A DNA stretch of 64,000 bases from an uncultured Solirubrobacterales bacterium (GCA_963813175.1 CAWEXV010000001.1:702911-766910), one strand, 5' to 3'. Positions 46,877 through 64,000 are shown, counted from the first letter of the stretch. Numbers and translations are program-made. The notes: generated by a model not told the origin, from the sequence alone.

Positions 46877-47398
46877 ATGGATCACACCGAGCAAGGGCCG
46901 GCATTTCACGAGGATGGTCTTGCCGCAGAAGTGCAGAACTCCGGCGCGCAGGCCGAGCAGCCGACCGCAGATTACCAGCTCGGCCCGCGAACAGTGCGGC
47001 TCGACAAGAAGCCGTCCCGGCCACGGTGGCGACGTCTCGTGCCGGGAGCGGCCCTCGGAATAGCGGTAATACTTCTTGCTCTACAGTCGCTTTCTGGGCG
47101 AGCCAGGATCTCCCGTCCAGCGCACTCCCATCGACCTTCACCGGCTCGGTCGTATCGCCACTATCGACGGCAACCCGTAACCCGCGACCACATTCCTCGA
47201 CACAGGGATCGAACACCTCAGCAAGCACGCCGCTCCAAGTCGAGCACCCATGTTAGTCACCTCTCAACCTCATATGTCGTCACTCATATTGAGGTTGCGC
47301 CCAACCCTGTACCGCAGGAAATTCACTTGCAGCCGCATCCGACTCATCCCACATCCACGCCTAGCAAAAGCAGTGACTTTGGCTACCTCGGGCGATAG
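46877..47398 (+). CDS. Hypothetical single-TM protein
   Basis: aaggag RBS; one hydrophobic helix; FGYLG C-terminus similar to FSYLG in the sigma fusion tail. Confidence 0.45.
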   Translation: MDHTEQGPAFHEDGLAAEVQNSGAQAEQPTADYQLGPRTVRLDKKPSRPRWRRLVPGAALGIAVILLALQSLSGRARISRPAHSHRPSPARSYRHYRRQPVTRDHIPRHRDRTPQQARRSKSSTHVSHLSTSYVVTHIEVAPNPVPQEIHLQPHPTHPTSTPSKSSDFGYLGR

Positions 47399-47426
47399 CC
47401 TAAGCGAGGCACCGACGAGTGTCACC

Positions 47427-47753
47427 TTGTCGCCGCCGTTTCTGGACCTACTGACCCGTCGGCTAGAGGCCATCGCGGAGCCCAACCGCATACGCATCCT
47501 GGCGCACCTTGAGCAGCAAGAAGCTACGGTTCAGCAACTTACCGACGAGCTAGCGACGACTCACCAAAATGTCTCCAAGCATCTTGGTGTCTTGCGTGAC
47601 GCAGGAATCGTGATGCGCCGCCGGGACGGCAACAAGGTGTGGTATTCGCTCGCGGACTACTCGGCGTGCAAATTGATCGAGCACGCCAAGGCCAGCCTCA
47701 CCGGCTACGTCGAAGAGCTGGTGGTCATAGCCGGGCTCGAAGGCACCGCCTAA
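47427..47753 (+). CDS. ArsR/SmtB-family regulator
   Basis: AEPNRIRIL, NVSKHLGVLRDAGIV, RDGNKVWYSL. Confidence 0.88.
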   Translation: MSPPFLDLLTRRLEAIAEPNRIRILAHLEQQEATVQQLTDELATTHQNVSKHLGVLRDAGIVMRRRDGNKVWYSLADYSACKLIEHAKASLTGYVEELVVIAGLEGTA

Positions 47754-47893: not shown

Positions 47894-48142
47894 ATGAGTC
47901 TTCTTGGTAGTGCAACCAAGTCACGAGACGGTCGGGCACCCACCGTCCTCGATGGCAGTAGTGCAGTGGGGCGCCTGGTCCGATTTGCGGCACGGATGCT
48001 GCTTTGGGGGTGTGTGCTGCTGCTGATTATTCGCGGCATCGCCTCCGAGTTCGCGACGCCGCAGACAGTCACCACGACTCGCGGTGTGTCGGCGCCGTTG
48101 CAGCAGCCGGTTTCCCCCGCGAGCACCACGGAAGGGAAGTGA
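47894..48142 (+). CDS. TcpC-like conjugal transfer protein, N-terminus only (probably truncated)
   Basis: RMLLWGCVLLLIIRGI TM anchor at the head of the operon; only 82 aa. Confidence 0.4.
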   Translation: MSLLGSATKSRDGRAPTVLDGSSAVGRLVRFAARMLLWGCVLLLIIRGIASEFATPQTVTTTRGVSAPLQQPVSPASTTEGK

Positions 48143-48147
48143 GGGGC

Positions 48148-48453
48148 ATGTCACATAAGCGGCGTCTGTCAATCGCTTTGTGTCTCGTGGCGTGGCTGTC
48201 CGTGTTGTTGCCGGCCGTGGCGCTCGCGTCGGGTAACGACGTTGGCAAGAACGTAGGCGATCTGCTGAAGCATTACGCGGGGGAGTTGTACGGCGGCATC
48301 GTGGGAATTATCGCGGTGGTCTGCCTGATGAACCGCCGCTACGTCGAGCTGGCGACGTTTTTGTTCGCTTCGGTGGTGGTCGCGTGGATGGTGTTCGACC
48401 CGAGCAACATCGCGACCGCTGCGGAAGCTATCGGCAAGCAGATATTCGGGTGA
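48148..48453 (+). CDS. VirB2/TcpD-like small membrane protein
   Basis: Signal-like N-terminus plus two TM helices, upstream of tcpE. Confidence 0.6.
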   Translation: MSHKRRLSIALCLVAWLSVLLPAVALASGNDVGKNVGDLLKHYAGELYGGIVGIIAVVCLMNRRYVELATFLFASVVVAWMVFDPSNIATAAEAIGKQIFG

Positions 48454-48465
48454 CGGGCGGCGATA

Positions 48466-49170
48466 ATGAGTGATTCTCCTGCGCCGATTCGCTCCTACCA
48501 GCGGATATTCAGGCCCGACCGACGTCTGTATCAGATAGACGGTCGACGTCTGCCGATCCCCGGCGGCGTGCCGCTTGAATGGCTTGGCTGGGCGTTCGCG
48601 GCGTTGATCGCGGTGCTCGTGCTCAGCCAACGCTCTCCCATGTTTGCGTTGGTACTCGCCGGGATCGGCGGCGTGCTCGGAGGCAGCTCGCACGGTTGGA
48701 GCGGCGCGACGATCCTCGCCGCCTTGGCGTTCGCGGGAACGCTGCTCCTCGGCGTGGTGTTGGGGTGGCTTGATTGGCCATTGCGGCTGCTCGTGCTGCC
48801 CGCGCTGTTGGCGACGGTCGCCGGGCACCCGTCCTCGGACGGCCGCTCGACCCACCGTTACATTATCTCGTGGCTCGGGGTGCAGTTGCGTGCCGCGCGC
48901 CGTTCCCTTGACCGGCCGCTGATAGCGGATGGTGAGGGGCAGGTTTGGGCGCCGCGGGTTTGGGTCGCCCCGGATCAGCACTCGCCTGTACTTCAGCGCG
49001 GCCGGGTTCACGGTCCCGCTCGGCTTGTATTTGGCCGGCGTGTCGTCGCGGTCCCCGCTCGTGGCCGATTCGTGGTGCGTCCCGCCGAGGGTCACCGGCT
49101 GCGCCGTGGTGAGCAGTTCGCGGAAGTGATCGAGCTCGGCGAGGGACAGATTGTCGAGGTGCGGCCATGA
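48466..49170 (+). CDS. TcpE-family (VirB3-like) protein
   Basis: IRSYQRIF...LYQIDG.RLP, TM helices, DGR motif. Confidence 0.75.
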   Translation: MSDSPAPIRSYQRIFRPDRRLYQIDGRRLPIPGGVPLEWLGWAFAALIAVLVLSQRSPMFALVLAGIGGVLGGSSHGWSGATILAALAFAGTLLLGVVLGWLDWPLRLLVLPALLATVAGHPSSDGRSTHRYIISWLGVQLRAARRSLDRPLIADGEGQVWAPRVWVAPDQHSPVLQRGRVHGPARLVFGRRVVAVPARGRFVVRPAEGHRLRRGEQFAEVIELGEGQIVEVRP

Positions 49171-51599
49171 CCGCGACGTTCCCGATCCGCTACGCGCATG
49201 GGAACGTGCTGATCGGCCCCGGTGGCGATAGCGCGGCGCTGTACCGGCTGGGGATGACCTCCTATCCGTTCCTGGCGGTCGGGGATAAGTGGGCGCTACA
49301 GCGTCGCCTTCAACGGCTCGCGCACACCGTCTCTGCGGACTTCAGCTTGTGGCGGGTCAACAGGTTCTACCCATCCGAGAGCTATGTCGCGCACACCGCC
49401 GGGCTGCTCGACGAGCGCCACCAGGACTCGCAGGCGTGGCAAGCGTTTCTGGAGGGTCACCAGGAGCGGCTGCGGGAGCTTGGTTCACACGTCCCGGAGG
49501 TTTATCTCGCGGTTTCGCTCACGCGCGCCGCGCCGACCGGCGTCGGCTCAGGGCTCGTGCGGGGGATGGATCGAGCCCGGCGCAGGGTGGAGGAGCTGGC
49601 CGGGATCGGCGCGGCGTCGCCGATATCGGCCGGTGAGCTGTCGGATTTGGTGGCTCACGAGCTGCGGGTGTTTGACCGCATCCGTGGCGTTGTGGCGGCG
49701 CGGCGCGCCCGCACCGTCGAGCTTCAATGGCTCTTGCGGCGCGCGGCTTGCCGTGGTGTGCGCGAGCCCGACCTTGATTCCTATTGGGAGCCGGATGCGC
49801 TGGTCGTGAACGCGCCCGGCGGCGGTGTCGCTTTCCAGCCGCTTGGCTGTGATCTGGCGCGGTGCGCGAACGCTGCGATCACCGAGCGCGAGCGGACGCT
49901 GATCGTGGAGGGTGAGCACGGGCGTTCCTATCAGGCGTTGCTCGCGCTCGGGTCGCTCGCTGACTCACCGCAGTTCCCCGGCGCGGGCGCGGAGGTGCTG
50001 TTCGCCCCATTGGAGTCGGTGCCGTGGCCGATCGACGCGGTTCTGCACGCCCGATGGCTCGGTAACCGACAGGCGCTAAGCGCGGTGCGCAAGCGGATCG
50101 CTGACGTGGAGCACACCTACAGCGAGCAGCTACAAGGCGCCGCGCACGGCCCTTCACTCATGGCCGGGGAGGATCGCGTCCTCGCGCGTGAGTATGAGGC
50201 GCAGCTACAGGCCGGCGGACACCCGCCGATGCTCTACGGCTACATCGGCCTCGCCGTTGGCGCGGAGGGCGAGGAGGAGCTGGAGCGCCGCGTCGCGGTC
50301 CTGAAAGAGCACTACGGGGATGTAGCAATTCACCGGCCCGCCGGGCTGCAGCACCAGCTATGGCTGGATCATCTCCCCCGGCCGGATGGGTGGCTGTAGG
50401 TGCGCGACTACGTGCAACAGCTCACCGTCGAGCAGTTCGGGGCGATGGTCGCGACCGCTACCCACGCGGTCGGCTCCCAGCGCGGCCCATATCTCGGGTA
50501 CACACCGACCGGAACACCGCGCCCCGTCCGCTTCGACGCAACACAAGCCCCCCGTGAAGATCGCGCCTCGGCGGTGCTCTTGATCGGCACGCTCGGTAGC
50601 GGCAAGACACTCGCCACAGAGCTGATCGAGTACGCCTCCGAGCGGCGAGGGAGCCTGATTGTCGATTTCGACCCGAAGCCCGATCACAACCTCGACCGCA
50701 TTTCCGAGCTACAGGGCCGCGTGCAGGTCGTGGAGCTGTCCGGCGACCCCGCCCAGCAGGGACGCCTTGACCCGTTGGCGATCGGGCTGCCCGACATGCG
50801 CGAGGAGCTTGCCTGCTCCTATCTGCTCGAGCTGCTGCCCGGCCCGTCGAGCCGGTGGGAGAACGCCGTTTCGCTCGCGGTGAAGGACACCGTAACCGAA
50901 GGCTCACAGAGCCTTGAGCGAGTCGTGGAGCTGCTGGTCGCGAGCGACCGCCACGGCGCCCGCGAAGCCGGCGAGGCGCTACAGGTGATCCGCGACTTCG
51001 GGCTGGCACGCCTCGGATTCGGTCAAGGCCGCGGCACCGCCGCGCAGGCGCAGGCGCCAGTGACGACGATCCGTATGCCGGGTCTCTCGCTGCCCGAGCC
51101 GTCCGCGGCGAGGGACACCTATACCCGCGCCGAGCGCGTCTCGGTCGCGACACTTTCACTTGTCGCGGCGTATGCACTGCGACTCATCTCCGGTGACCGC
51201 AAGCGCCACAAGGTCGTAGGTCTTGACGAGATTTGGTTCCTTCTGGCCTCACCACAAGGCCGACAGGTAATCAACCGACTGGTACGACTTGGGCGCGCGT
51301 ATAACGCAACGCTGCTGTTGGGAACTCACCGAATCGGTGACCTGGGAGACCTCTCAGACCTAATCGGTGTCGTGTTCGTGTTCGGGCAGGACTCCGATCA
51401 GGCAGCCGCCGCCGCACTGCGGTTCGTCGGCCTTGACCCGACCCGCGAACTGATCGCCGTCGTGCGCGAATTCCGCGCCGGGCGATGCCTCATGCGTGAC
51501 CTCCAGGGCCGCGTCGGCGAGGTGCAAATCGACCTCGTTTACCCACATCTGCTGAGAGCGCTTAACACCACACCCGGCCAGCAAGGCGGCACCCCATGA
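49167..51599 (+). pseudogene. virB4: VirB4-like conjugation ATPase split by one in-frame TAG (50397-50399)
   Basis: ORFs 49167-50399 and 50400-51599 share a frame; second half has GTLGSGKT, DPK and LDEIW. Confidence 0.8.
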
Positions 51600-53389
51600 A
51601 AACCACGATCTCCCGTGCGATGGATTGGTTCACACGCCGCCCTCTCGCATTCACCACAATTTTTACGTTGGCGTTCGGGCTGCTGCTGCTCGCTGCTCCG
51701 GCGTTCGCGGGTGACGTTTACGGCAACATCGGCCCTGCCCCGCAGGTTGGCAGCGGAGGCATCTTCGGCCGCTACCCCGTCGAAGGCTATCAGCTCGACC
51801 AATACTTCCCAGCAGTAACAGCAAGTCTCACCTCCGGCATCGATGCCTCCGGTATAGCGCCGATGATCGCGTATTTCATCGCGCAGCTTGTCTGGCTTGT
51901 GACCGCATTTCTCGCCAATGCCGTAGTCACACTCTTTACGTTCTGTTTCTCGCTTGACCTGTTGAACGGTAACGGCAGTGCAGGGTCCGGCGCGCTCGCA
52001 CCAGTCTCCCAGGCGGTTCACAATATCTACGCCAACACGTTCGGTACGCCGTGGCTCGTAGCTGCCGTCTCGATCCTCGCGTTGTGGGCGATGTGGCGAG
52101 CGCTCGTGCAGCGTCGCTATACCGAGACGGCCGGCGCGCTCGCCGTTTCGCTGCTCTACTGCGTGCTAGGGCTCGGGATCGTCCTTGAACCACAGGCGAC
52201 GATCGCGCCAGCCAGCCGCTACGCCAACCGCATGTCGACGGCGCTCCTGTCGCTCACATCGCAAGGCAACCTCTCAAGCGAAGCCCAGGCCAAGCAGGCC
52301 GCAAGCGACCAGCTCTTTAACCTGCTGGTCCTCCAGCCGTGGACCGTCCTTGAGTTCGGCGGGCTTGAGCACTGCGTCACCACCAAGGGCAAGAACACGG
52401 TATCGGTTCCTGTCCGCCCGCTGGGCGGCAAACCTTCACAGGAAGCCGCTCTCGCGAGCCAGCTCGAAAGCGGCACCGAACTTCGCATCGGCGCGAAGAC
52501 GTGCATAAACAACGAGAACAAGTATGACACGCATTTTCTCCCCTACCCGTTCCAGAGCAAGGACCGAAACGGTGAGTATGAAGCACTAGCGCACGGCGAT
52601 GCCGGTGAACTTCCGTCCTCGGACCCCGCCAAGAACAACGGCAGTTATCGGTTGGGGCCGGCCGATGAGCCAGCCGCCGAAGCGGCCGGTAAGGGCGGAC
52701 AGTTCCAGCGCGCCCTGCTGGCGATAGTGATATTCGCTGGTGAGCTGGGCGCGTTTCTGCTACTCGGCGCGCTCGCGATAGGAGTGATCCTCGCGGCGAT
52801 CCTCCTCCTGCTTCACCTCGCGTTCGCGCCGGTAGCGCTCGTGCTCGGTGTGATACCCGGCAGGGGTCACCAGTTCTTCCGGGCATGGCTCTCTCGCCTG
52901 GCTGGCTATCTACTCACAAAGGTCATTTACAGCCTGATCCTCGCTGTGGTGCTCGCGGTTTGCCAAGCCTTGGCGGACGCAGCCTCGAACCTCGGGTGGC
53001 TGCTCGCGTTCCTTCTCCAAGCCGCGTTTATGTGGGCCGTTCTCTTTAACCGCAAGCGGCTGACCGGCGAGCTGCTGTCCGCGACGGCGGGCGGGCAAGC
53101 CAGCGAGGCCAACCACCTCCAGACCCTCTACTACAGCACGCGCCTGCTGGGAATGGCTCAGCGGCGGCGCACCTCTCCACCACCGCCAGGGGAAGGGTCG
53201 CCGTCCGGCGATCACGCTCCCCTGCCTAACCCAACAAGGGAGTCAAACGTGGATAACGACACTGCCCCACGGGGCGTCGATGTGCCCGAACCGGGCGAGG
53301 AGTATGACGAGCCGATCGCCGGTAGCGAAGGCGGCCCGCCACCCGTCGCGCCCGAGCCCGACCCGGACCCCGATGAGGAGCCCGCATGA
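51596..53389 (+). CDS. VirB6/TcpH-like polytopic membrane protein
   Basis: Multiple TM helices, QPW motif, acidic Pro-rich tail; ATGA overlap with virB4. Confidence 0.7.
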   Translation: MKTTISRAMDWFTRRPLAFTTIFTLAFGLLLLAAPAFAGDVYGNIGPAPQVGSGGIFGRYPVEGYQLDQYFPAVTASLTSGIDASGIAPMIAYFIAQLVWLVTAFLANAVVTLFTFCFSLDLLNGNGSAGSGALAPVSQAVHNIYANTFGTPWLVAAVSILALWAMWRALVQRRYTETAGALAVSLLYCVLGLGIVLEPQATIAPASRYANRMSTALLSLTSQGNLSSEAQAKQAASDQLFNLLVLQPWTVLEFGGLEHCVTTKGKNTVSVPVRPLGGKPSQEAALASQLESGTELRIGAKTCINNENKYDTHFLPYPFQSKDRNGEYEALAHGDAGELPSSDPAKNNGSYRLGPADEPAAEAAGKGGQFQRALLAIVIFAGELGAFLLLGALAIGVILAAILLLLHLAFAPVALVLGVIPGRGHQFFRAWLSRLAGYLLTKVIYSLILAVVLAVCQALADAASNLGWLLAFLLQAAFMWAVLFNRKRLTGELLSATAGGQASEANHLQTLYYSTRLLGMAQRRRTSPPPPGEGSPSGDHAPLPNPTRESNVDNDTAPRGVDVPEPGEEYDEPIAGSEGGPPPVAPEPDPDPDEEPA

Positions 53390-54048
53390 GCGCTCGCATC
53401 GAAACCACCAGCTCCCCGGCCGGGCTGCTTCGCGAGCTGCCCACGGGCTGGGCACAAGCGATCGTCACCAGCCCTAGCCGCACGGACCTCGACCGTTCAC
53501 CCGCCGCGCTTTTCACACAATTGCATCGGGTGTTGCGCGATGACGGCACCCTCTGGCTGCTGTGCGCCGATAAGCACCTCCCGAGCGAGCTTGCCGAGCG
53601 CGGATGGATGACGCGCCCGGTGGATTGGGCGACACCTTTGCGTGTTGACCCCGCTGGGCGCGCTCGCCTTCACCTGCTCGTCAAGCGGCCCAGCTACCAC
53701 TACAACACCCATGCAGCGGAGCTGTTCCTAGCGCCGCGCACCCAGGCCGCGTGCGCAACTGGCCGGCGGCACGGCTGCGCGTGGAGTACCGAGCATCGCC
53801 GGGAGTTGCTGCGACTGTGCGTGATCGCCGCAACGTCGCGGGTCGCGTGCGGGACGTGCGGCACACCGTATCGGCGCGGAGCGTCCGGTGAGCGGCGCTC
53901 CGGGTGCGCCCACCATAACCCCAGCGGGCGGTGCCTGGTGCTCGACCCGTTCTACCACTGCGCGCGCGGCACCCTGGACGCAGCCCGTCAGACCGGGCGC
54001 AGCTTCCTTGGGATCATAGACACCAGCGATGGCGGTGAACGACGGTGA
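53386..54048 (+). CDS. Degenerate N4/N6 DNA methyltransferase homolog
   Basis: IVTSPS (for SPPY), RVLRDDGTLW, CxxC insert, VLDPFYHCARGT (for DPFxGSGT), GRSFLGI. Confidence 0.6.
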   Translation: MSARIETTSSPAGLLRELPTGWAQAIVTSPSRTDLDRSPAALFTQLHRVLRDDGTLWLLCADKHLPSELAERGWMTRPVDWATPLRVDPAGRARLHLLVKRPSYHYNTHAAELFLAPRTQAACATGRRHGCAWSTEHRRELLRLCVIAATSRVACGTCGTPYRRGASGERRSGCAHHNPSGRCLVLDPFYHCARGTLDAARQTGRSFLGIIDTSDGGERR

Positions 54049-54566
54049 CACGCCGTCTCGCATCGTTGCGTGATCGGCCCGCCTCTGAGGATGAACGCCG
54101 TGCCGCGACGCTCGCGGTCCTCGGATTGGTTCTCAGCGCCGTGGTTCTGCTCGGCGTTACTCACGATCCGTCTTCTGAGCGGGCGCAACGTTCGGTGCGG
54201 CCTCGTGCCGCCGCGCCGGCCACCTCTGTCCAGGCGCCGCGCGTTACTGCCGGCGCGGCGGTGAGCATCGCCCACGGTTTCCTGCCGGGCTACCTCGCCT
54301 ATGCCTATCGGGGAGCACCGGCCACGAAGGTAGCCGACGCCACACGGGCGCTCATCGCCTCGCTTGAGGATCACCCGCCGCGCGTGACGCTCCCCACACA
54401 CGAGAGCCTGCCGAGGGTCCTCGATTTGCGCCCGACGGTGCAGGCATCTGGACAACTCGTGGTCAGTGTGGTTCTCAACGATGGCGGGATCGTTCACTAC
54501 ACGGTCGGTCTTCTGCTCATCCGACTGCGCGGCCGGCTCATGGTCGCCGGGCTGGAGAGTCAGTGA
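54045..54566 (+). CDS. Single-TM conjugation protein (VirB8-like, tentative)
   Basis: TM anchor then FLPGYLAY...; inside the coupled tra operon. Confidence 0.5.
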   Translation: MTRRLASLRDRPASEDERRAATLAVLGLVLSAVVLLGVTHDPSSERAQRSVRPRAAAPATSVQAPRVTAGAAVSIAHGFLPGYLAYAYRGAPATKVADATRALIASLEDHPPRVTLPTHESLPRVLDLRPTVQASGQLVVSVVLNDGGIVHYTVGLLLIRLRGRLMVAGLESQ

Positions 54567-55822
54567 TGAGCGCCCGGCGAGCGTTGTGGTGGTGGGCGGG
54601 TGCCGGGTTCGTCTCGACAGGGCTAATGCTCGTGGCTATTTTCGGCATCGTTCTTGCTGCGCTCGGGGGGAGCTTCAGCGGCTGTGAAGCCAAGAGCCTT
54701 CCCGTGACTCTCACCGGACCCGCGGGGCCGGCGCCCTCGGCGTATGCACTGGGAAGCGTCCCACCGGAACGCCTGCGACTGTATGAGCAGGCCGGGCGAC
54801 GCTTTGACCTCGACTGGTCATTTCTGGCGAGCATCGGCGTGCAGGAGTGTGGTAACGGGAGCTGCGCTGGAGTCAACAGCGCGGGGTGCGCCGGGCCGAT
54901 GCAGATTGCCTATGTGCGCGGGAGCCCGTGCAGTCCAGGGAACGCGCCGACACTGTGGGAACGCTACGCCGTCAGCTCCCACCCCGGCCTAGCACCGGAT
55001 ATCAACGATCCGGGTGACGCGATAAACACCGCCGCGCGCATCCTGCGCGAAGACATGGGCGCCCCGCCCACGGGCGGCTCATACACGCAATATCGCGAAG
55101 CCGCCTGCCACTACTACGGCGCGTGCGGAGACTCGACTGTCGCCTACGCCGACGAGGTAATGGCACGCGCGGTTCAATTCGGCTTCGATGGTTCCGGCTC
55201 GCCAGCGCCGAGCAGCCCGCCACTAGCGCAGCCACCCGCCGAAAGCGAAGAACCAGTCAATGCGTGCAGCGCAGGCTATTTCAGTGAAGGTGAAGCGGGC
55301 AGCACGGCGATAGTGAAGCTCGCCGAAAGCCAGATCGGCCAAGGCGAGCACCCCGAAGGGTCCAACTGCACAAAGTATGGGCCGTGTGAGGAGTGGTGCT
55401 CGCTGTTCGTCGCGTGGGTGTGGCAGCACGCCGGGGCGGCGCTCCCCGGCTCTCCGGCCGACTACGGCTATTCCGGGGCGCTCTATACGTGGGTACAGGA
55501 ACACCACGGCCGGGTACTCCCCGCGACCGCGAGGCCCTCACCCGGCGATGCCGTCTTCTACGGCGGCGGGCCGAGTGAAAGCGCGCACGTCGGGATCGTC
55601 ACACAAATCCTCACAGACGGACGGATCGTGACCGTCGAGGGAAATTACGAAAACAAGGTCAGCCGCGTGGGCCCATTCTCGCCAGCCAACCCAATCGGCG
55701 AGCGAGCCGCGATCTACGGCTACGCCCAGCCACTAGTCCCAGCTCCCGACGAAGCCCGGCCGAGAGCAAGCCACGACCAATTACACGCAGCCACACACAA
55801 GCACAGTCAACCCCACCGCTGA
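54563..55822 (+). CDS. Cell-wall hydrolase: lytic transglycosylase + CHAP (VirB1-like)
   Basis: LASIGVQE, AGPMQI, EEWCSLFVAWVW, AHVGIV, VEGNY. Confidence 0.88.
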   Translation: MMSARRALWWWAGAGFVSTGLMLVAIFGIVLAALGGSFSGCEAKSLPVTLTGPAGPAPSAYALGSVPPERLRLYEQAGRRFDLDWSFLASIGVQECGNGSCAGVNSAGCAGPMQIAYVRGSPCSPGNAPTLWERYAVSSHPGLAPDINDPGDAINTAARILREDMGAPPTGGSYTQYREAACHYYGACGDSTVAYADEVMARAVQFGFDGSGSPAPSSPPLAQPPAESEEPVNACSAGYFSEGEAGSTAIVKLAESQIGQGEHPEGSNCTKYGPCEEWCSLFVAWVWQHAGAALPGSPADYGYSGALYTWVQEHHGRVLPATARPSPGDAVFYGGGPSESAHVGIVTQILTDGRIVTVEGNYENKVSRVGPFSPANPIGERAAIYGYAQPLVPAPDEARPRASHDQLHAATHKHSQPHR

Positions 55823-55836
55823 CAGGAGGACAAAGA

Positions 55837-56865
55837 ATGAGCACCTCGAGTAACACGGACGCACAGCGCGAGGACCCCGATCAGGTAGTCGCGCGAGCAA
55901 AGGCCGAGCACAAACCTGTCGCGACGTGGTGTCTATTTTCCGGTGGTAACGACTCGACCGTGCTCGCGCACCGCTGCCGCAAGCACTACGACGGCCTAGC
56001 GTTCATCGACACCGGGACCGCCGTCCCAGGCGTCGCCGAGTTCGTGGCGGACTTCGCGCAGTCGATCGACAAGCCGTTGCGAGTCATGCACGCCGGGGAC
56101 GCCTTCCGCAAGCTCGTGCTCGGCGGCGCCGTTCGCAGGAATGGCACCGTCGAGGTTGGGATCGGGTTCCCCGGACCGGCGATGCACAGCCGCTCCTACA
56201 GAGCGCTAAAGGAGTCACAGATCAAGGCGCTTTTGCGTGAGAGCAAGGTCGGTCACTCCCGCCGAGCGCGCGTGTTGTTCCTCTCAGGCATCCGTCGCGC
56301 GGAGAGCCGGCGCCGCTCCCAGCGCGTGCCGATCGACCGACTCGGCGGCACGGCGGCGGTGTTCGCAAACCCCTTGATCGACTGGACCGGCGAGGACATG
56401 CGTCGTTACCGCTCAGAGCACGAGCTGCCCGAGTCGGACGCCGCCGCGCTCATGCACAGAAGCGGCGAGTGCAACTGCGGCGCGTTCGCGTCGGCCGCAG
56501 AGGAGCGCGCCACGCTCAAGCTGCTCTACCCCGAGTTTTTCGCGTCGATCGAAACCCTGGAGGCAGAAGCCGAGGCCGCCGGATTGCAGTGGTGCCGCTG
56601 GGGCGGATACGACCGCGACGGCCAGCGCGCGACCGATACCAAGCGCCAGGCGGTCGGGCTGCTCTGTGAATCCTGCGACAGCCGCCAGCACGCCCCAGCG
56701 CTCCCCCGCTCCCGTCCACCGCGACGGCCAGCGTGCGAAGCGCCCGCAGACGCAGGCGCCACGGCATCCGGCGAGGAGCAGCCCACCCGCCGCCGGGCGG
56801 AGCTGCCCAGCGCTCCGCTACCGATGTTCGCGGCCGGGCGCGCGACGCGGGGGAGGCGACCGTGA
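55837..56865 (+). CDS. PAPS-reductase-family (PP-loop) protein
   Basis: FSGGNDS, IDTG, GIRRAESxxR, NPLIDW, HRSGECNCGAF. Confidence 0.85.
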   Translation: MSTSSNTDAQREDPDQVVARAKAEHKPVATWCLFSGGNDSTVLAHRCRKHYDGLAFIDTGTAVPGVAEFVADFAQSIDKPLRVMHAGDAFRKLVLGGAVRRNGTVEVGIGFPGPAMHSRSYRALKESQIKALLRESKVGHSRRARVLFLSGIRRAESRRRSQRVPIDRLGGTAAVFANPLIDWTGEDMRRYRSEHELPESDAAALMHRSGECNCGAFASAAEERATLKLLYPEFFASIETLEAEAEAAGLQWCRWGGYDRDGQRATDTKRQAVGLLCESCDSRQHAPALPRSRPPRRPACEAPADAGATASGEEQPTRRRAELPSAPLPMFAAGRATRGRRP

Positions 56866-57038
56866 GGCCGCAGGACCGTTTCAGGGACCGGCTTAGGGAC
56901 CGCCTACAGGACCGGCTGAGAGACCGCTTGTGGTTCCCTGCGGGTTGGGTGCCGGTGCATGGTTTCGCGTTTGCTGGTGCGGTTTCTGGGGCGTGTGGTT
57001 TTTGCGAGAAGTCTATGTGTGCAGGTAACTCACTGTGA
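56862..57038 (+). CDS. 58-aa peptide with (DRL[R/Q]) repeats
   Basis: GTGA overlaps at both ends; MRPQDRFRDRLRDRLQDRLRDRLW, encoded by degenerate 12-bp repeats. Confidence 0.4.
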   Translation: MRPQDRFRDRLRDRLQDRLRDRLWFPAGWVPVHGFAFAGAVSGACGFCEKSMCAGNSL

Positions 57039-59782
57039 ACCCCAAGCCATCACAGAGCCCTCTGCCTCTCGTGGCTGTAGTCGCTGGCCTGGTGGCTGTG
57101 TCACTTCTCGGTCGCTTGCAGTCCCTTCCGGAGGTTGCCATTGGCGGTGCCTTGCTGTTACTGCCTGTGCTGCCCGTTGCGGGGGTGATCGTGTCCGTGG
57201 GTGTCGCGGCTCGTGTCGTCGCTAGTCGTCGTTCGCTCGCCTCAAGGGTCCGGCTCGTAGTGCTCGCCCCCGACTCGTTTGACCCGAGCCTTGATGCCGT
57301 GCTGCGCTGCGCCGCTCAGCTCTCGCGTGTGCGTCGTCTCGTTGGCGGCTGGCTCGACCCGCGCGCACGCGCCGTGCGCGTCCTGCTCGACACGGACGCC
57401 GAGGGCCGGATGCGCTACTCGCTCAGTGTGCCCGAGCGGGCGCTGCCGGCCCTCCGCGCTGCACTCGGCGTTTATGACCGTGTGCAAGCGCGCGTCGTCG
57501 AGTCCGAGCCAACCCCGAGCGCTCCACGCGAGAGGGTGCAGGTTGTCCGGGCGGAGTTGCGTCTCGCGCGGCCGAGTAGTGAACCGCTCGCGCAGCTCCC
57601 GCTCCTACCCGACCCGCTGCAGAGCTTCGCACAGGTGCTCACGCGTCTGAATCACGAGCACGGCGACCGCGCACAGATCGCGATTGACCTGCTGCCGGCT
57701 GTGCCGGCGACCCGTAGGCGTCTGCGGCGTCGGCTGCTCAAGCAGGCACGCCGGCTGGAAGACGGCGCGACGGGTGACGGGCGTGATCCCCGCGCCGGGC
57801 TGGGCGGCGGGCGCCCGGTCGGCCGGCGCCGCCCAGCGGAAATGGTCGAGCAGCGCGCCGTCAGAGAGGAGCTGAGCGCGAAGCTCGTAAAGGCCGAGCC
57901 ACTGTTCCGGCTGCAAGTCCTGATTCGTGCAAGCTCACCAGAGCGAGGCAGCGCGGTCTCCTGCCTTCACGGCCTGCTCGGCTGCTTTGACGCAATGCAG
58001 GCCGCCAATTCCCTGCGGGTCGTCGGCGTGCGGTTCCTGGGGTTGGCGTTCGCGGGATCGGACCTCCCCGGCCGTCGCACATGGTTTGACCGGCGCATGA
58101 GCACCGGACTATTCCGGCCGGCCCGCAAGGATTACGTCACCGCACGGGAGATAGCCGGGTTCCTCAAGCCGCCAACCGTTCACTGCGCCGCCCCGGAAGT
58201 CCTGCGTCTCGGCCCAGCAGTCTACCCCGCGCCGAGAGCACTCCCGACGTTCACCGGGCAGCCCGGCCTGATACCGCTCGGGCGGGTGGAGAGCGAGGAC
58301 GGCGAGCGCCGCGTCGGCCTGCGTGCCGAGGACTCATTCTTTTCCTATATCGCGGGCCGCTCGCGGTGGGGAAAAACCGAGCTAGCGCTAAACCAATTTC
58401 TACACATCGTCCGCTCCGGGCACGGTGGTCTGATCCTCGACCCTCACCTCGACGCGATAAAGCGCGTCAAGGCTTGTCTTACCGAGCCTGAGCTAGCCGG
58501 GCGGATCATCGAACTCGATCTAGTCGGGCCGCGCAGCCGCGACGGCCAGCCCGGCTGGAACCTATTCGCCGCGCGTGGCCTTGACCCCGAGGCAGCCGAG
58601 CGACGGGTCGAGGCCATCGTTGACTCATTTGCGAGCGCGTTGCAGTGGGGGGAGCGTAACAACCGTGCGCTCACGATCACGACGCAGGCAGCGGGCGCGC
58701 TGATCGAGCTAGCCGCCATGCTGCCCGATGGGCTACAGCCCACGATCTTCCAAATGCCGACGCTGCTCGGCAACCCCGACTGGCTCGCCACCGCGCTCCC
58801 CTACCTCTCCCCAGCAAGGCGCCAATTCTTTACTGAGCGATTCCCCCGGCTGAGCGAGGAGGCGATCACACCCGTAACAAACCTGATCGACCGTCTGCGG
58901 TCATCGACGCAGCTCGCGGCGTTACTCGGCTCACAGTCGTCAAGCTATGACATTCGCCGCGCGATGGACGAGCGCAAGATCGTGCTCGCGTGCCCCGGTG
59001 CCGGAGGCGCGACGGACAGGCTCGTGGCGTGCCTGCTCGTGTTCGACATGCTCCACGCCGCCAAGGGCCGCGCAAACGTGCCACCCGAGCAGCGTCCACC
59101 GTTTTACCTGGTTCTCGATGAGATCCAAACCTATGACGGTGCCACTGGCGGAAACGTCGCCGCGCTTTTGGAGCAGACAGCAAAGTACGAGATCAAGGCC
59201 ACATTGCTCAATCAAAACCCTGAGCGACTCACCAAGCAAACTCTCAACGCGATCACCACCAACCGCAGCCACCTAATAACGACCGCGCTCGACGCCCACG
59301 CCGCCGGTCTGGTCGTTAGAGAGTGGGGAGCCGACCCGCCCGCCAGTGCGATCACCGGCCTGCCACGCTGGCGGTTCATCGCACAAGTCACACACAAGGG
59401 CGCGCTGACCTCGCCGTTCATGTTCAACGGCGAGTCGATCGAGGACGCCTACGCACCCTCCTATCGTCCCGATGCCGTTGCCGACATTCAGCCGGCGATC
59501 GACGCGGCGTCCGGGCGGGCGAGCGCCGCCGAGACGATCACCCAACTAGACACCCTCGATCAGCGGATAAGAGAGCACCTAGAAGCCAAGCAGGGACACC
59601 ACCGTGACTCGGGCGCTGACGCCGACCGGCCGTGGAGCGCACCCGCCGCGCCTCGAATGAGAGGGCCAGCGTGCGACAACACCCCGAGCACAACTGCCGA
59701 GTGCGCCGAGCCGGGACGGCGACACTCCACACCGCTTCGTACACTCGGCTCCCGCCCAGAGATACGGGACGGCGAGCGGTGA
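57035..59782 (+). CDS. VirD4/TcpA-like coupling ATPase
   Basis: N-terminal TM helices; GRSRWGKTE, LDPH, LDEIQ, NQNP. Confidence 0.82.
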   Translation: MNPKPSQSPLPLVAVVAGLVAVSLLGRLQSLPEVAIGGALLLLPVLPVAGVIVSVGVAARVVASRRSLASRVRLVVLAPDSFDPSLDAVLRCAAQLSRVRRLVGGWLDPRARAVRVLLDTDAEGRMRYSLSVPERALPALRAALGVYDRVQARVVESEPTPSAPRERVQVVRAELRLARPSSEPLAQLPLLPDPLQSFAQVLTRLNHEHGDRAQIAIDLLPAVPATRRRLRRRLLKQARRLEDGATGDGRDPRAGLGGGRPVGRRRPAEMVEQRAVREELSAKLVKAEPLFRLQVLIRASSPERGSAVSCLHGLLGCFDAMQAANSLRVVGVRFLGLAFAGSDLPGRRTWFDRRMSTGLFRPARKDYVTAREIAGFLKPPTVHCAAPEVLRLGPAVYPAPRALPTFTGQPGLIPLGRVESEDGERRVGLRAEDSFFSYIAGRSRWGKTELALNQFLHIVRSGHGGLILDPHLDAIKRVKACLTEPELAGRIIELDLVGPRSRDGQPGWNLFAARGLDPEAAERRVEAIVDSFASALQWGERNNRALTITTQAAGALIELAAMLPDGLQPTIFQMPTLLGNPDWLATALPYLSPARRQFFTERFPRLSEEAITPVTNLIDRLRSSTQLAALLGSQSSSYDIRRAMDERKIVLACPGAGGATDRLVACLLVFDMLHAAKGRANVPPEQRPPFYLVLDEIQTYDGATGGNVAALLEQTAKYEIKATLLNQNPERLTKQTLNAITTNRSHLITTALDAHAAGLVVREWGADPPASAITGLPRWRFIAQVTHKGALTSPFMFNGESIEDAYAPSYRPDAVADIQPAIDAASGRASAAETITQLDTLDQRIREHLEAKQGHHRDSGADADRPWSAPAAPRMRGPACDNTPSTTAECAEPGRRHSTPLRTLGSRPEIRDGER

Positions 59783-60690
59783 GTGCTCACGCCGTCAGTC
59801 ACCGTGCGTTGCCGGGCGTCGCGCCCGCGATGCTCGCCGGGCTCTACCAGCACCGGCTACTCACGACGAAGCAGCTCCACGCGCTCTACACGCCCGAGAC
59901 ACGGCTGCGGTGGACCCGGCGCGTGCTCGAATCGCTGCGCTCGCGCGGGCTCGTGGATCGCGTGCAGGGACCTGGCACGCTCTCGCTGTGGTTCACGACC
60001 GATGACGGCGCCGATGCCGTCGAGACCACCGGCCCCCGAGCTGAGCCACGCAGACGAGTCACCACACAAGCGCAGGCCGAAGGACTCCTGCGTAAGCACA
60101 CCATCGCGGTCAACGACGTGGGGATCGCGTTCACCATCGCGGCACGCAAGCGAGGAGACGAGTGCGGCCCGGACTCTTGGCGACACGAGATAGCACACCC
60201 AATATCAGCCGGCAGCGTTCGCAAGCCAGCGCAGCTCGTGATCGCCGACGCTCTACTGACCTACCTACAGACCACGGCCGACGGAGCGCTCGTGCTGCAC
60301 CAGCGCTTTATCGAGCTTGACCGAGGGACCGCCCGTCCAGCCGAGCAGCTAGCCGCCAAGATCACCCGCTACACCAGGCTCCGCTACTACACACCCATAT
60401 CGGCCGCCGCTCCCGACGCACCGGCCGAGCCGCTGTGGCGCCGCTACTACCGATCCTGGCCGCACCTTCTCGTCGTGCTCGCCGATCAGTCACCAAAGCG
60501 CATCAAGCAGCGGATTCAACGCACACTTGCACTCTACGAATCCGATCCCGGCAAGGATCACCGCATCGCCATCCCCGTCTCGTTCGTGAGCCTCGACGAC
60601 CTCACCGAGAGAGGACCGTTTGCCCCCATTTTTGTCACGGCCGACCAACCCGAACGCACCGTGAACTGGCTCGGAGAACCAGCAAGCTGA
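59779..60690 (+). CDS. Replication-relaxation family relaxase (intact)
   Basis: LYQHRLLTTKQL, HTIAVND, ADALL, FIELDRGT. Confidence 0.85.
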   Translation: MSAHAVSHRALPGVAPAMLAGLYQHRLLTTKQLHALYTPETRLRWTRRVLESLRSRGLVDRVQGPGTLSLWFTTDDGADAVETTGPRAEPRRRVTTQAQAEGLLRKHTIAVNDVGIAFTIAARKRGDECGPDSWRHEIAHPISAGSVRKPAQLVIADALLTYLQTTADGALVLHQRFIELDRGTARPAEQLAAKITRYTRLRYYTPISAAAPDAPAEPLWRRYYRSWPHLLVVLADQSPKRIKQRIQRTLALYESDPGKDHRIAIPVSFVSLDDLTERGPFAPIFVTADQPERTVNWLGEPAS

Positions 60691-60703
60691 CGAAAGGGAC
60701 GAC

Positions 60704-62302
60704 ATGACCGCTGCAAGATCACGCAAAGTAATTCGACGCGGACCCAGCCAACGCGGCTCAGAGCTTCCCAGCAGGCGCCGCTGGGAAATTCGTAACGATG
60801 ACTGCCAGAAGGTACTGCCGAAACTGCGAGCCAACAGCATCGACGCGATCGTCACCGATCCGCCCTATGGCCTTGAGTTCATGGGCAACGAGTGGGACAG
60901 CTTTCGCAGCGACGACCCAGGCACAAACCGCAACCGCGGCGAGCGCGCGGGATCGCAGGGGATGACCCACGGTGACGGCGAAGGCAACCATCCGGCGCGG
61001 GGGAAGATCGCTGTCGCGTATGGTGGCGGCAAACGCCCGGAGACCTCTAGGTGTACAGGGTGCGGTAAGCGCGACCAGTTTCGCAACAAGCACGCTTGCG
61101 GGCGGTCCGCTCGATGGGTGCGCGAACCGATCGATCCATTCGCGGCGCCCCCAACAACCCTGGCGTTCGAGAACTGGTGCCGCGAGTGGGCGCTCGCTGC
61201 GATACGAGTCTTGAAGCCCGGCGGCTACCTGCTCGCCTTCGGCGGTACCCGCACCCACCACCGTCTAGCCACCGCGCTCGAGGACGCCGGCTTCGAGATC
61301 CGCGACTGCTTATGCTGGCTCTACGGGCAGGGCTTCCCCAAGTCGCTGAACGTCGCCGCAGCGATCGACAAAGCTAAAGGCCATGCCACTCGCGGCCACG
61401 CGATCCCGGTTGCCTCAACCCACCTCCCGAGCGGACGCTATGCCAAAGAGAAACTCACCGGGAACCCGGTCGAGCCATACAGGGCGCGCAGTCGAGCTGC
61501 TGCAGCGTGGGAGGGCTGGGGCACCGCGCTGAAGCCAGCGTGGGAGCCGATCGTCATAGCGCGCAAGCCGCCGGATGGGACGATTGCCGAAAATGTTTGC
61601 AGGCACGGCACCGGCGCGTTGCATATCGACGGCTGCCGGATCGCATTCCAGTCTGCTGGAGACGAGCGTAAGAGCAAGATCAAGAACCGGCACGCCGATT
61701 TCGACTCTGGGACGCGCAAGAACCGAATCTACGGCCGTGACAAGCGCGCCCGCAGTAACTACAATCCCCCCGGCCGCTGGCCGGCGAACGTGGCCCTATC
61801 GCACTCCAAGGACTGCCGGCGAATCGGCCAAACCTGTGTGCGTTCAAACTGTCATCACCCGGCAGTTGGCGGCGCGGGCACGACCGGTCACCAAGGCCAA
61901 AAGCGACTTGCTGAGTGTTCGAGCGCGGCGGAGCTGGTCGGCTGCTGGGAGTGCTCCCCCGATTGTGCCGTGCGTATACTCGATGAAAAGAGCGGCGTGT
62001 CACCTTCACGGTTCTTCTACAGCGCCAAGGCATCCCGCGCCGAGCGAGACACGGGCCTCGATGAGGCTGGCAACACGCATCCGACCGTGAAGCCGATCGG
62101 CCTCATGCGATGGCTCGTCCGACTCGTCACGCCTCCCGGTGGAACCGTTCTCGACCCGTTCGCCGGCAGCGGCTCGACGGGCTGCGCGGCCGTCCTGGAG
62201 GGCGCTCGCTTCCTCGGCATCGAGCGCGAAGCCGCCTACGTCTCGATAGCGCGAGCCCGGATCAGGCATTGGGCCAGATCGACCGAGAGGCACAGCCAAT
62301 GA
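60704..62302 (+). CDS. N4/N6 DNA methyltransferase (beta class)
   Basis: TDPPY, RVLKPGG, LKPAWEPI, HPTVKP, LDPFAGSGST. Confidence 0.92.
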   Translation: MTAARSRKVIRRGPSQRGSELPSRRRWEIRNDDCQKVLPKLRANSIDAIVTDPPYGLEFMGNEWDSFRSDDPGTNRNRGERAGSQGMTHGDGEGNHPARGKIAVAYGGGKRPETSRCTGCGKRDQFRNKHACGRSARWVREPIDPFAAPPTTLAFENWCREWALAAIRVLKPGGYLLAFGGTRTHHRLATALEDAGFEIRDCLCWLYGQGFPKSLNVAAAIDKAKGHATRGHAIPVASTHLPSGRYAKEKLTGNPVEPYRARSRAAAAWEGWGTALKPAWEPIVIARKPPDGTIAENVCRHGTGALHIDGCRIAFQSAGDERKSKIKNRHADFDSGTRKNRIYGRDKRARSNYNPPGRWPANVALSHSKDCRRIGQTCVRSNCHHPAVGGAGTTGHQGQKRLAECSSAAELVGCWECSPDCAVRILDEKSGVSPSRFFYSAKASRAERDTGLDEAGNTHPTVKPIGLMRWLVRLVTPPGGTVLDPFAGSGSTGCAAVLEGARFLGIEREAAYVSIARARIRHWARSTERHSQ

Positions 62303-62601
62303 GCGACGAAAAGCAAGCAGCCAAGCGGGATGCCAGCCAACAGGGGCGCCCGCCCCGGCCCTGCGAGACGCGACGCAGACGGCGCCGGTCGCCTGCCGCG
62401 CCCGTCTGCGCTACCGTTGGAGCATCCAAGCAAAGCGGCCGGGCAGCGTTGGAGCGCCCCCGGCCCGACACAGGAGGTTGTGACTCCCATGCAGGATCAA
62501 CATACCGCGACGGCGACCTTGAAGCCTTCGCAAACTGGTTTGCTGACTGGTGGCTTCGACGCGGACGAGACAATGATGGGACTGGAGGCGATCGTGGCTA
62601 A
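62299..62601 (+). CDS. Small hypothetical protein
   Basis: ATGA overlap with the MTase stop; ends overlapping the recombinase start; DLEAFANWFADWWLRRG. Confidence 0.35.
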   Translation: MSDEKQAAKRDASQQGRPPRPCETRRRRRRSPAAPVCATVGASKQSGRAALERPRPDTGGCDSHAGSTYRDGDLEAFANWFADWWLRRGRDNDGTGGDRG

Positions 62602-64000
62602 GCGCGGCGCCGCCTACGTCCGCGAGTCAAGCGAGGAGCAGGGCGAGGGTTTCTCCCCCGGAGCGCAGCGTAGAAAGATTTACGAATGGGCTCAAGAGAA
62701 CGGGATCGAGATTGTCGAAGAGTATTGCGATCTTCACTCCGCGTGGCGCAAGTCCGACGCCCGGCCTGATTTCCAACGACTCATGGCAGACGCTTCCAAG
62801 GGTAACTTTGACGTTGTGCTCGTCTTTCACACATCAAGATTCGCGCGCAATCAGACCGAGGCACGCCGGTACAAGCAGCTTCTCCGAGAGCGTCTGAACA
62901 TCCAGGTCATCTCGGTATCGCAGCCGTTCGGTAACGACCCGTCCGAGCCGTCATCGTTCCTCGCCGAGTCAATCAACGAGGTGTTTGACGAGTATTACTC
63001 GGTGGCCCTATCGTTCTGGACGCGCAATGGGCTCGCTGAGAAGGCCCGCGAAGGACATCTAGTCGGACTGCTCCCGTGGGGTTACGTGCGCGACCTCAAG
63101 ACAAAGCTGGCGGTGCCTCATCCGTGGCGCGCGCCGCTCGTACTCGAAATGTTCAAGCGGTATGACACAGGGCAAGAGTCCGACCGATCCCTCGCCGCCT
63201 GGTTGAACGCCAAGGGAGCCCGCACCGCCCGTGACCGAGAGTTCTGCGCAGACACCGTTAGGGACATGCTCCGTAACGCCGCCTATTGCGGATATGTCTC
63301 CGGGCAGCGCGACACCAACAAGACGATCAAGGGACTCCATGAGCCGATCGTCCCGGAGGAGCTGTTCGACAGCGTGCAGCGACTCCGCGCGTACCGAGCA
63401 GCGGTCAAGCAGCCGAGCCCACCATCGGATGAGTACCTGCTGCGCAAGATGCTCCGATGCGAGCGTTGCGGCGCCCGGATGCACGGCACCCGTGGATCGC
63501 GCCCGCCCGTCCGGCGCTATCAGTGCTCATCCGGCCGGCACGGGAACGCTTGCGGCCAGAGGATCACCAAGGCCGAGCCCCTGGAGAACCAGCTCGCGGA
63601 GTGGCTGCGTGCGTTCCAGCCCGACGCCGACCTACGCAAGCGCGTGCTCGACGCGATCAGCGCACAGGCCCGCGAGCAGAGCGGCGAGACGAACCGACGC
63701 GCTAAGCTGGCCGACCAGCTCCGCCGTCTGCAAGACCTCTACGTGCTCGGCGACCTCACCAAGGCGCAGTACGTCATGCGCCGTCAGGCCGCGCAAGACG
63801 AGCTGGAACGCCTGGCGCCCCCAGCCAACCCGCAACTCGCCGAGGCCGAGAACCTGCTCGCCAACTTCGCGAGCTTTTGGGATCGCGAGAGTTCGCCCGC
63901 CGAGCGCCACCGCCTGCTCACGACGCTCTTTGAGCGCGTATGGCAGGACGCGGGGCGGATCGTGTTCGTGAAGCCACGACCCGCCTTCGCGCCCTACTTC
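62594..64000 (+). CDS. Large serine recombinase (3' end outside window; absent from the ORF track)
   Basis: ggagg RBS, GTG 62594; AAYVRES, RPDFQRLM, SRFARN, PWGY, NAAYCG, CERCG...YQC zinc ribbon; same frame at 62594 and 63962-64000. Confidence 0.92.
   Translation, partial: MAKRGAAYVRESSEEQGEGFSPGAQRRKIYEWAQENGIEIVEEYCDLHSAWRKSDARPDFQRLMADASKGNFDVVLVFHTSRFARNQTEARRYKQLLRERLNIQVISVSQPFGNDPSEPSSFLAESINEVFDEYYSVALSFWTRNGLAEKAREGHLVGLLPWGYVRDLKTKLAVPHPWRAPLVLEMFKRYDTGQESDRSLAAWLNAKGARTARDREFCADTVRDMLRNAAYCGYVSGQRDTNKTIKGLHEPIVPEELFDSVQRLRAYRAAVKQPSPPSDEYLLRKMLRCERCGARMHGTRGSRPPVRRYQCSSGRHGNACGQRITKAEPLENQLAEWLRAFQPDADLRKRVLDAISAQAREQSGETNRRAKLADQLRRLQDLYVLGDLTKAQYVMRRQAAQDELERLAPPANPQLAEAENLLANFASFWDRESSPAERHRLLTTLFERVWQDAGRIVFVKPRPAFAPYF

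Follow-up and report, generated by a model that had tools for sequence, protein, structure and literature searches.

A PAPS-reductase-like gene as an exchangeable, candidate anti-restriction cassette in the transfer operon of a Solirubrobacterales integrative and conjugative element

The orphan methylases and anti-restriction genes of conjugative elements have an established protective role (PMC11541004, PMC7213743), and three enzymes of the PAPS (3'-phosphoadenosine 5'-phosphosulfate) reductase family, DndC, SspD and BrxP, are established in DNA phosphorothioation (PMC12839542, PMC12707154). A clade of 'PAPS reductase-like' proteins from phages and integrative and conjugative elements (ICEs) has been mentioned in passing, as possibly DndC-like (PMC8092301). 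A literature search of incomplete coverage returned no functional study of this clade, and papers dealing with polyvalent proteins, with ParB-CTPase fusions, with phage 7-deazaguanines or with leading-region anti-defence make no mention of such enzymes. We analysed a gene of this kind in a 64,000-nucleotide (nt) stretch of DNA from an uncultured Solirubrobacterales bacterium (GCA_963813175.1, CAWEXV010000001.1:702911-766910), hereafter the window. The gene (55837-56865; PF01507 at 6.4e-11, 43 bits against a cut-off of 22.5) lies in the type IV secretion system (T4SS) operon of an ICE, between a cell-wall hydrolase and the coupling protein. A preliminary description of the window had placed a PAPS-reductase-family gene in this chain with no cys or dnd partner genes, and both statements are confirmed, the second by family searches of the neighbours. 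It had also regarded the modification genes as hard-wired into the operon, and on this point our results differ.

Compared with the described systems, the locus follows a known strategy in a variant form, in which one of the players is enzymatically uncharacterised. Like the orphan methylases and the ArdA- or ArdC-type genes of conjugative plasmids and ICEs, it places a nuclease-free methylase beside the relaxase and the coupling protein, and, as in the anti-restriction sets of conjugative elements, the corresponding slots of its relatives hold ArdC-like, C5, N6/N4 and Mom-like genes. Unlike in those sets, the window genes lie within the translationally coupled operon of a T4SS and not in a leading region that has been mapped, and one of the occupants is a PP-loop enzyme of uncharacterised chemistry. 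This enzyme shares with DndC, SspD and BrxP the PF01507 fold, a canonical PP-loop and an association with DNA modification, and perhaps the conserved cysteines, but it does not match the DndC model, has neither a desulfurase nor an ATPase or DNA-recognition subunit as partner and, whereas those enzymes are defensive, is carried by mobile elements as an offensive gene. It is homologous to Mycobacterium phage Ruby gp65, Streptomyces phage phiSASD1 gp3 and HFTV1 gp58, with which it has the cysteine motifs and the location on a mobile element in common, although the phage and viral copies are in early or replication regions and the window copy is in a conjugation operon. With CysH and adenosine 5'-phosphosulfate (APS) reductase it shares the overall fold, the motif G-x-R-x-x-E-S-x-x-R and the Glu-Cys of a C-terminal motif (ECxCG compared to ECGLH), and it differs from them by a canonical ATP-binding PP-loop, extra invariant cysteines and the lack of a cys context.

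The genome that holds the window contains three diverged syntenic copies of the ICE, and in all of them the PAPS-like gene is found between the hydrolase and the coupling protein. The coupling proteins of the copies (the two others at G000:C1:1197707-1213304 and G000:C2:246799-262687) are 71-75% identical. Occupancy of the slot was followed in 301 genomes of the same order, an evenly drawn and unbiased set in which the coupling protein was found at E<=1e-40 in 24 genomes (36 places, 47-75% identity). In the 23 of these that are not the window's own genome, the coupling proteins are 47-73% identical and the PAPS-like gene is present in none; only the window's own genome truly matches the PAPS-like profile, the other matches in the sample reaching at most 45 bits and covering mostly the N-terminal PP-loop part of the profile. 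In 23 of the fetched loci without the gene, the slot is occupied by one or two C5 methylases (L073, L077, L079), is empty (L074) or contains short unknown genes. Furthermore, in a maximum-likelihood tree the window gene and its two nearest ICE relatives are sister to genes of a second ICE family, apart from the other genes of the window's own ICE family, including the genome's two other copies, and at least five changes of context are needed on this tree. Given its absence from the slot of relatives and its moves between two ICE families, the PAPS-like gene is a mobile cassette. Hence 'hard-wired' does not hold for this gene, and the preliminary description had itself named absence from most related ICEs as evidence against its proposal, which is what the 0 of 23 genomes display. 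As regards the form of the protein, the genome's two other copies are of a long type with an insertion of about 25 amino acids (aa), while the window encodes the short form, typical of a different ICE family.

The protein belongs to a distinct clade of PF01507, which comprises 816 clusters (50% identity) at E<=1e-3 and 96 at E<=1e-30 and is spread over ICEs, plasmids, actinophages and haloarchaeal viruses. In a 103-member alignment its PP-loop, SGGNDS, is canonical, with S35, G37, D39 and S40 of SGGxDS invariant, and the G-x-R-x-x-E-S-x-x-R motif is common to the clade and to PAPS reductases. A second motif, S-G-E-C-x-C-G, has S209, C212 and C214 invariant and G210, E211 and G215 near-invariant, and a terminal C277-x-x-C280 has C280 invariant and C277 near-invariant. 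In two distant homologues (P0270, at about residues 207-570, and P0205) an intein with Hint and LAGLIDADG domains is inserted exactly between the two ECxCG cysteines, its +1 residue being C214, which argues that the cysteine pair is functionally central. An AlphaFold2 model built on the 103-sequence alignment has a pLDDT of 85.6 (an earlier model from 27 close sequences was poor, with a pLDDT of 61), and it is closest to PAPS and APS reductases (TM ~ 0.4-0.6), with TtuA, an Fe-S tRNA thiolase, and further ATP pyrophosphatases coming next. Actinophages, haloarchaeal tailed viruses and plasmids of actinobacteria and haloarchaea encode homologues under the annotation 'PAPS reductase-like domain protein', which are 29-37% identical (in the phages and viruses over ~ 75-80% of the protein, cysteine motifs included) and are surrounded by helicase/MCM, DnaN, PCNA and DNA methylase genes. 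A single-protein search of a 400-genome phylum-wide sample gave no match outside the window's own genome.

In order to describe the surroundings of the gene, loci were scanned with one genome per species, giving 50 PAPS-like loci, nearly all from Solirubrobacterales metagenome-assembled genomes (MAGs), about 27 in the same ICE family as the window and about 20 in the second one. Flank statistics were taken on the 40 loci with at least 3 kb on either side. A recognised DNA-modification or anti-restriction gene is found within 3.5 kb in 30 of these, and conjugation genes within 7 kb in 29. Besides the PAPS-like gene, the slot of the same family contains C5 methylases, other methylases, second PAPS-like paralogues, DpdA-like genes with Vut_1/YhhQ, and Mom-like (XF1762) genes. 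The C5 cytosine methylases (PF00145, 500-590 aa) have a stop that overlaps the start of the PAPS-like gene by 4 nt, and once the two form a single open reading frame (ORF) of 892 aa. In the second ICE family the order is a TrwB-type coupling protein, a Replic_Relax relaxase, ArdC-like, Mom-like/DpdA-like/methylase genes, the PAPS-like gene and an integrase. Fusions are observed as well: a Mom-like/XF1762 domain (NF045478 at 7e-53, phrog_1384 at 1.4e-33) and a DpdA-like domain (phrog_887 at 4e-51 and 1e-54) are each joined N-terminally to close homologues (60-64% identical) of the PAPS-like protein, and the single-stranded-DNA-binding ArdC-N domain is joined to a more distant homologue. They give the impression of separate anti-restriction functions that have been brought together.

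Since its relatives sit among DNA-modification and anti-restriction genes and are fused to Mom-like, DpdA-like and ArdC-N domains, a role in anti-restriction or DNA marking is the best reading of the PAPS-like gene, and from this genomic context we give it a probability of roughly 60%. The methylase and the PAPS-like gene together are best read as interchangeable add-ons against restriction and not as fixed machinery; the methylase downstream of the relaxase is the one modification gene that is near-backbone. In the mechanism we propose, two slots near the coupling-protein/relaxase pair, one from the hydrolase to the coupling protein and one after the relaxase, would gather interchangeable anti-restriction and DNA-modification genes, the window copy holding the PAPS-like enzyme and the orphan methylase. 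Both enzymes would be produced in the donor alongside the T4SS upon induction of transfer. The methylase would mark the element's DNA, and the PP-loop enzyme would activate a DNA position by means of ATP (adenylation), after which its cysteines, perhaps aided by a metal or an Fe-S centre, could complete a covalent mark. Such marks would lower cleavage by the restriction systems of the recipient. A more specific version, which we advance tentatively and hold to be possible but doubtful, is that the family with SGECxCG and PP-loop motifs is a stand-alone DNA-modifying enzyme with an undescribed chemistry, giving a portable anti-restriction mark without Dnd or Ssp partners; a possible route would be ATP-dependent adenylation of a base or of the backbone, followed by cysteine- or Fe-S-mediated transfer of sulfur or of another group.

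Several points weigh against a DNA-marking or anti-restriction role. No sequence feature at the locus shows DNA modification, and the evidence is guilt by association, with a partner reference set drawn from the same loci. The PAPS-like protein has no recognisable DNA-binding domain and none of the partners needed by DndC or SspD. Ten of the 40 flanked loci have no recognised modification gene nearby, and the lone fusion of a C5 methylase with the PAPS-like protein, from a long-read MAG, may be an artefact caused by an indel. Finally, most related ICEs lack the gene, which is therefore dispensable for transfer.

The gene behaves as one cassette among C5, N6/N4, Mom-like, DpdA-like with YhhQ-like, and ArdC-like genes that swap across two operon slots, and the locus with its relatives offers a coherent, testable context for PAPS-like genes, an annotation that is widespread in phages, archaeal viruses, plasmids and ICEs. 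Should the gene indeed write a DNA mark, it would provide a new form of epigenetic protection, relevant to the interpretation of modification signals in long-read metagenomes. If there is no DNA mark, the locus would still be a clear example of modular anti-restriction slots in the little-studied ICEs of Thermoleophilia.

The explanation that best survives beside this one is a PP-loop enzyme that does not act on DNA at all but on a nucleotide, a cofactor, a tRNA or a defence signal, for instance in host takeover or in another form of anti-defence, and that only shares the accessory slots. The protein is indeed a stand-alone form without DNA-binding domain, its nearest solved folds are small-molecule or tRNA enzymes (PAPS/APS reductases, CysD, TtuA, GMP synthase), and the slots also accept non-modifying genes such as ArdC-like ones. 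However, the fusion partners (Mom-like, DpdA-like, ArdC-N) are DNA-modifying or bind single-stranded DNA and none is metabolic, and the viral homologues are found among replication genes, and we regard this explanation as unlikely.

A DndC/SspD-type phosphorothioation enzyme, which would use the cysteine desulfurase and other factors of the host to put sulfur into the backbone of the ICE DNA, appears still less probable. Membership of the same superfamily (PF01507), with the canonical PP-loop of its ATP-pyrophosphatase members, is in its favour, as are weak PADLOC matches to SspD (6.8e-5, 20.7 bits) and BrxP (1.2e-3, 15.1 bits); the conserved pair C212-x-C214 may also correspond to the distinctive cysteine dyad described for DndC (PMC10853773). 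These PADLOC matches, however, are at the level of the PP-loop and span little beyond it, and the DndC model (TIGR03183) matches none of the three copies, neither the protein at E<=0.01 nor the whole genome at E<=0.001. Moreover, no desulfurase, DndD/DndE or SspB/SspC-like gene was found in the operon, where the neighbours of the PAPS-like gene are the CHAP hydrolase, a 58-aa ORF and the coupling protein, whereas known phosphorothioation systems require an ATPase and a DNA-recognition subunit (PMC12707154).

We consider it very improbable that the protein acts at one step of a pathway for 7-deazaguanine DNA modification, alongside the DpdA-like transglycosylase and the YhhQ-like transporter that lie next to it in relatives. 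This would agree with the fusions of DpdA-like to PAPS-like proteins and with the trio of Vut_1/YhhQ-like, DpdA-like and PAPS-like genes seen in 10 of the 50 loci, the closest relative of the window (L012) included. Against this, there is no DpdA-like gene in the window or in the whole genome, 32 of the 40 flanked PAPS-like loci have no recognised DpdA-like gene, and among 80 DpdA-centred metagenome loci a PAPS-like gene occurs in one only (0 of the 26 with at least 1.5 kb on both flanks). In addition L100, an ICE of the window's family, contains Vut, a DpdA-like gene and a C5 methylase in the slot without a PAPS-like gene. The DpdA-centred loci and L100 rule out the PAPS-like protein as an obligate DpdA-like partner, and because the two genes are independent this explanation is largely refuted.

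Least credible of all is metabolic cargo, that is an auxiliary CysH-like gene of sulfate assimilation, as suggested by the public annotation (PAPS reductase) and by PAPS reductases being the best PDB matches, since the protein scores far under every CysH/APS-reductase cut-off (TIGR00434 29.4 against 154 bits, NF002537 24.1 against 165, TIGR02057 19.9 against 254), has a canonical SGGxDS where the alignment shows a degenerate loop in CysH, lies in a cys context in 0 of the 50 loci, and is found in a genome with its own cysH/cysD. This canonical adjacent pair (G000:C1:450179-451541), ~ 300 kb off, scores 133 and 156 bits on PF01507, beside 41 bits for the ICE gene. A grouping with CysH, which the preliminary description had put forward as a check on its proposal, is thus not observed.

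Overlapping genes of the Vut_1/YhhQ family (a queuosine-precursor transporter family) and DpdA-like genes were observed inside the T4SS operon of several ICEs (L012:11070-12268; L100:5573-6735; L014:10858-12089; also L019, L020, L027, L029, L033-L035 and L055). This points to ICEs that carry 7-deazaguanine DNA modification along with an importer of their own for the precursor. The pair is present in the closest relative of the window, L012, and absent from the window copy.

Taken as a whole, the region makes up the transfer module, intact in appearance, of a T4SS-type ICE from a Solirubrobacterales-like soil actinobacterium. The conjugation module runs on the + strand from ~ 47.2 kb to the end of the window, and it has what is expected of a Gram-positive (Tcp-like) ICE: a VirB4-type ATPase, a coupling protein, a relaxase, a VirB6-like channel, a cell-wall hydrolase and an integrase. 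From TcpE onwards, the order is TcpE, a split VirB4, VirB6-like, p220, p173, CHAP, PAPS-like, p58, coupling protein, relaxase, methylase, p100 and recombinase. The features are the following.

47250..47753, + strand: helix-turn-helix (ArsR/MarR-like) regulator at the head of the module (PF12840 at 3.3e-13)
48004..48453, + strand: TrbC/VirB2-like small membrane protein (PF04956 at 3.5e-5, under the curated cut-off; kept in relatives)
48466..49170, + strand: TcpE-family T4SS membrane protein (PF12648 at 4.7e-8)
49167..50399, + strand: N-terminal half of a VirB4/TcpF ATPase, as its own ORF (NF052333 TcpF at 5.4e-10, partial match)
50400..51599, + strand: C-terminal half of the VirB4 ATPase, AAA_10 (PF12846 at 5.4e-57)
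51596..53389, + strand: VirB6/TrbL-like polytopic channel protein (PF04610 at 3.5e-7)
53386..54048, + strand: p220, backbone protein with a degenerate N6/N4-methylase-like core, SPSR for DPPY (phrog_67, PADLOC MTase_II, motif remnants)
54045..54566, + strand: p173, single-pass membrane protein of the backbone (no family match; kept in relatives)
54563..55822, + strand: CHAP-domain cell-wall hydrolase of the T4SS (PF05257 at 7.1e-11)
55837..56865, + strand: PAPS-reductase-like PP-loop enzyme (P0002), accessory gene occupying the variable slot that separates hydrolase and coupling protein (PF01507)
56862..57038, + strand: p58, micro-ORF of 58 codons linking the PAPS-like gene to the coupling protein (a GTGA overlap on either side)
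57035..59782, + strand: type IV coupling protein (P0001), 915 aa (Walker motifs, ESM Atlas neighbours)
59779..60690, + strand: candidate relaxase of the Replic_Relax family (PF13814 at 2.5e-24)
60704..62302, + strand: orphan beta-class N6/N4 DNA methyltransferase, 532 aa, with a large Cys-rich insertion (PF01555)
62299..62601, + strand: p100, small basic protein of 100 codons (ATGA overlap with the methylase stop; no family match)
62594..64000, + strand: large serine recombinase that extends past the window (Resolvase 1.1e-23, Recombinase 2.7e-16, Zn_ribbon_recom 7e-9)

The compactness of this chain, which had been noted before, is borne out by the junctions. The nine listed as 4-nt overlaps (49167, 51596, 53386, 54045, 54563, 56862, 57035, 59779 and 62299) all are, each with the form [A/G]TGA, the start codon sharing 4 nt with the TGA stop of the preceding ORF. 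They represent 9 of the 13 junctions from tcpE to the recombinase. The remaining gaps are 0 nt (50399/50400, TAG then GTG), 14 nt (55822/55837) and 13 nt (60690/60704), and the last junction is that of p100 with the recombinase, where the start position of the latter is uncertain (62573-62594). The 14-nt gap is the one 5' of the PAPS-like gene, and it contains AGGAGG. According to a crude ORF-based estimate for the genome, ~ 11% of neighbouring pairs on the same strand overlap in this way, and against this background the 9 of 13 overlaps show an operon unusually compact even for a high-GC genome; a naive binomial gives ~ 1e-6 for the enrichment, with junctions inside one operon that are not independent.

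The preliminary description had counted two methylase-family genes in the chain, of which one is real and the other has weak support. The real one (60704-62302) matches PF01555 at 6.7e-31 and phrog_67 at 6.4e-71, and it has DPPY towards its N-terminus and DPFAGSGST towards its C-terminus, with motif IV before motif I. It is an orphan, flanked by the relaxase and by a 100-aa ORF without family match, with no adjacent nuclease gene. A related methylase is located 3' of the relaxase in most relatives, and in two loci (L069, L092) a Mom-like gene takes its place. The other one, p220 (53386-54048), appears to be a degenerate remnant: its similarities, to phrog_67 at 1.4e-5 and to PADLOC MTase_II at 1.9e-5, are short and below threshold, and it has the motif remnants AIVTSPS and VLDPFYHCARGT. 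Pfam gave no match to it and a pairwise BLAST to the real methylase was not significant, and p220 is kept in relatives at 29-51% identity. It displays remnants of the N6/N4 methylase motifs IV and I (SPSR for DPPY, a degenerate FxGxG) and a Cys-rich middle, and as a possible methylase paralogue it is a weak lead.

The ATPase of the module is encoded by two ORFs. In the window (49167-51599) the TAG stop of the N-terminal ORF of VirB4 abuts, in frame, the GTG start of the C-terminal one. The two-ORF VirB4 was also observed in all three ICE copies (the others at G000:C1:1209074-1211484 and G000:C2:258523-260939) and in about 40 related loci (e.g. L012, L022, L026), and the halves frequently differ in reading frame, overlapping by 1 nt or standing 2-13 nt apart. 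Since this form is conserved in relatives, the TAG/GTG of the window is a natural split, and a virB4 broken by a recent nonsense mutation is ruled out.

The regulator at the head of the module is kept 5' of the T4SS genes in both other ICE copies and in related loci. The coupling protein has N-terminal hydrophobic segments, a Walker A (GRSRWGKT) and a Walker B (LVLDEIQ), and it has no Pfam match and no PDB sequence match; it is identified as such by its Walker motifs and by its nearest ESM Atlas clusters (score 0.97-0.98), which carry TrwB_AAD_bind or T4SS-DNA_transf domains.

Some loci of the scan differ from this organisation. In L083 and L085-L091 (genomes G653, G605, G575, G536, G635 and G674), many related coupling-protein/relaxase pairs are found without nearby T4SS genes and may be mobilisable elements or rearranged ICEs. 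L032 (CAVPMI010000067.1), from a MAG titled 'uncultured proteobacterium', contains this actinobacterial ICE with many apparent frameshifts, and this is probably a problem of binning or assembly quality rather than a transfer across phyla. Among the small ORFs, p100 has tblastn matches of 70-72% in L006 and L012, and p58 has matches of 47-71% in L006, L012, L039 and L098. In L098 p58 lies directly 3' of a DpdA-like gene; it therefore travels with the coupling protein and not with the PAPS-like gene.

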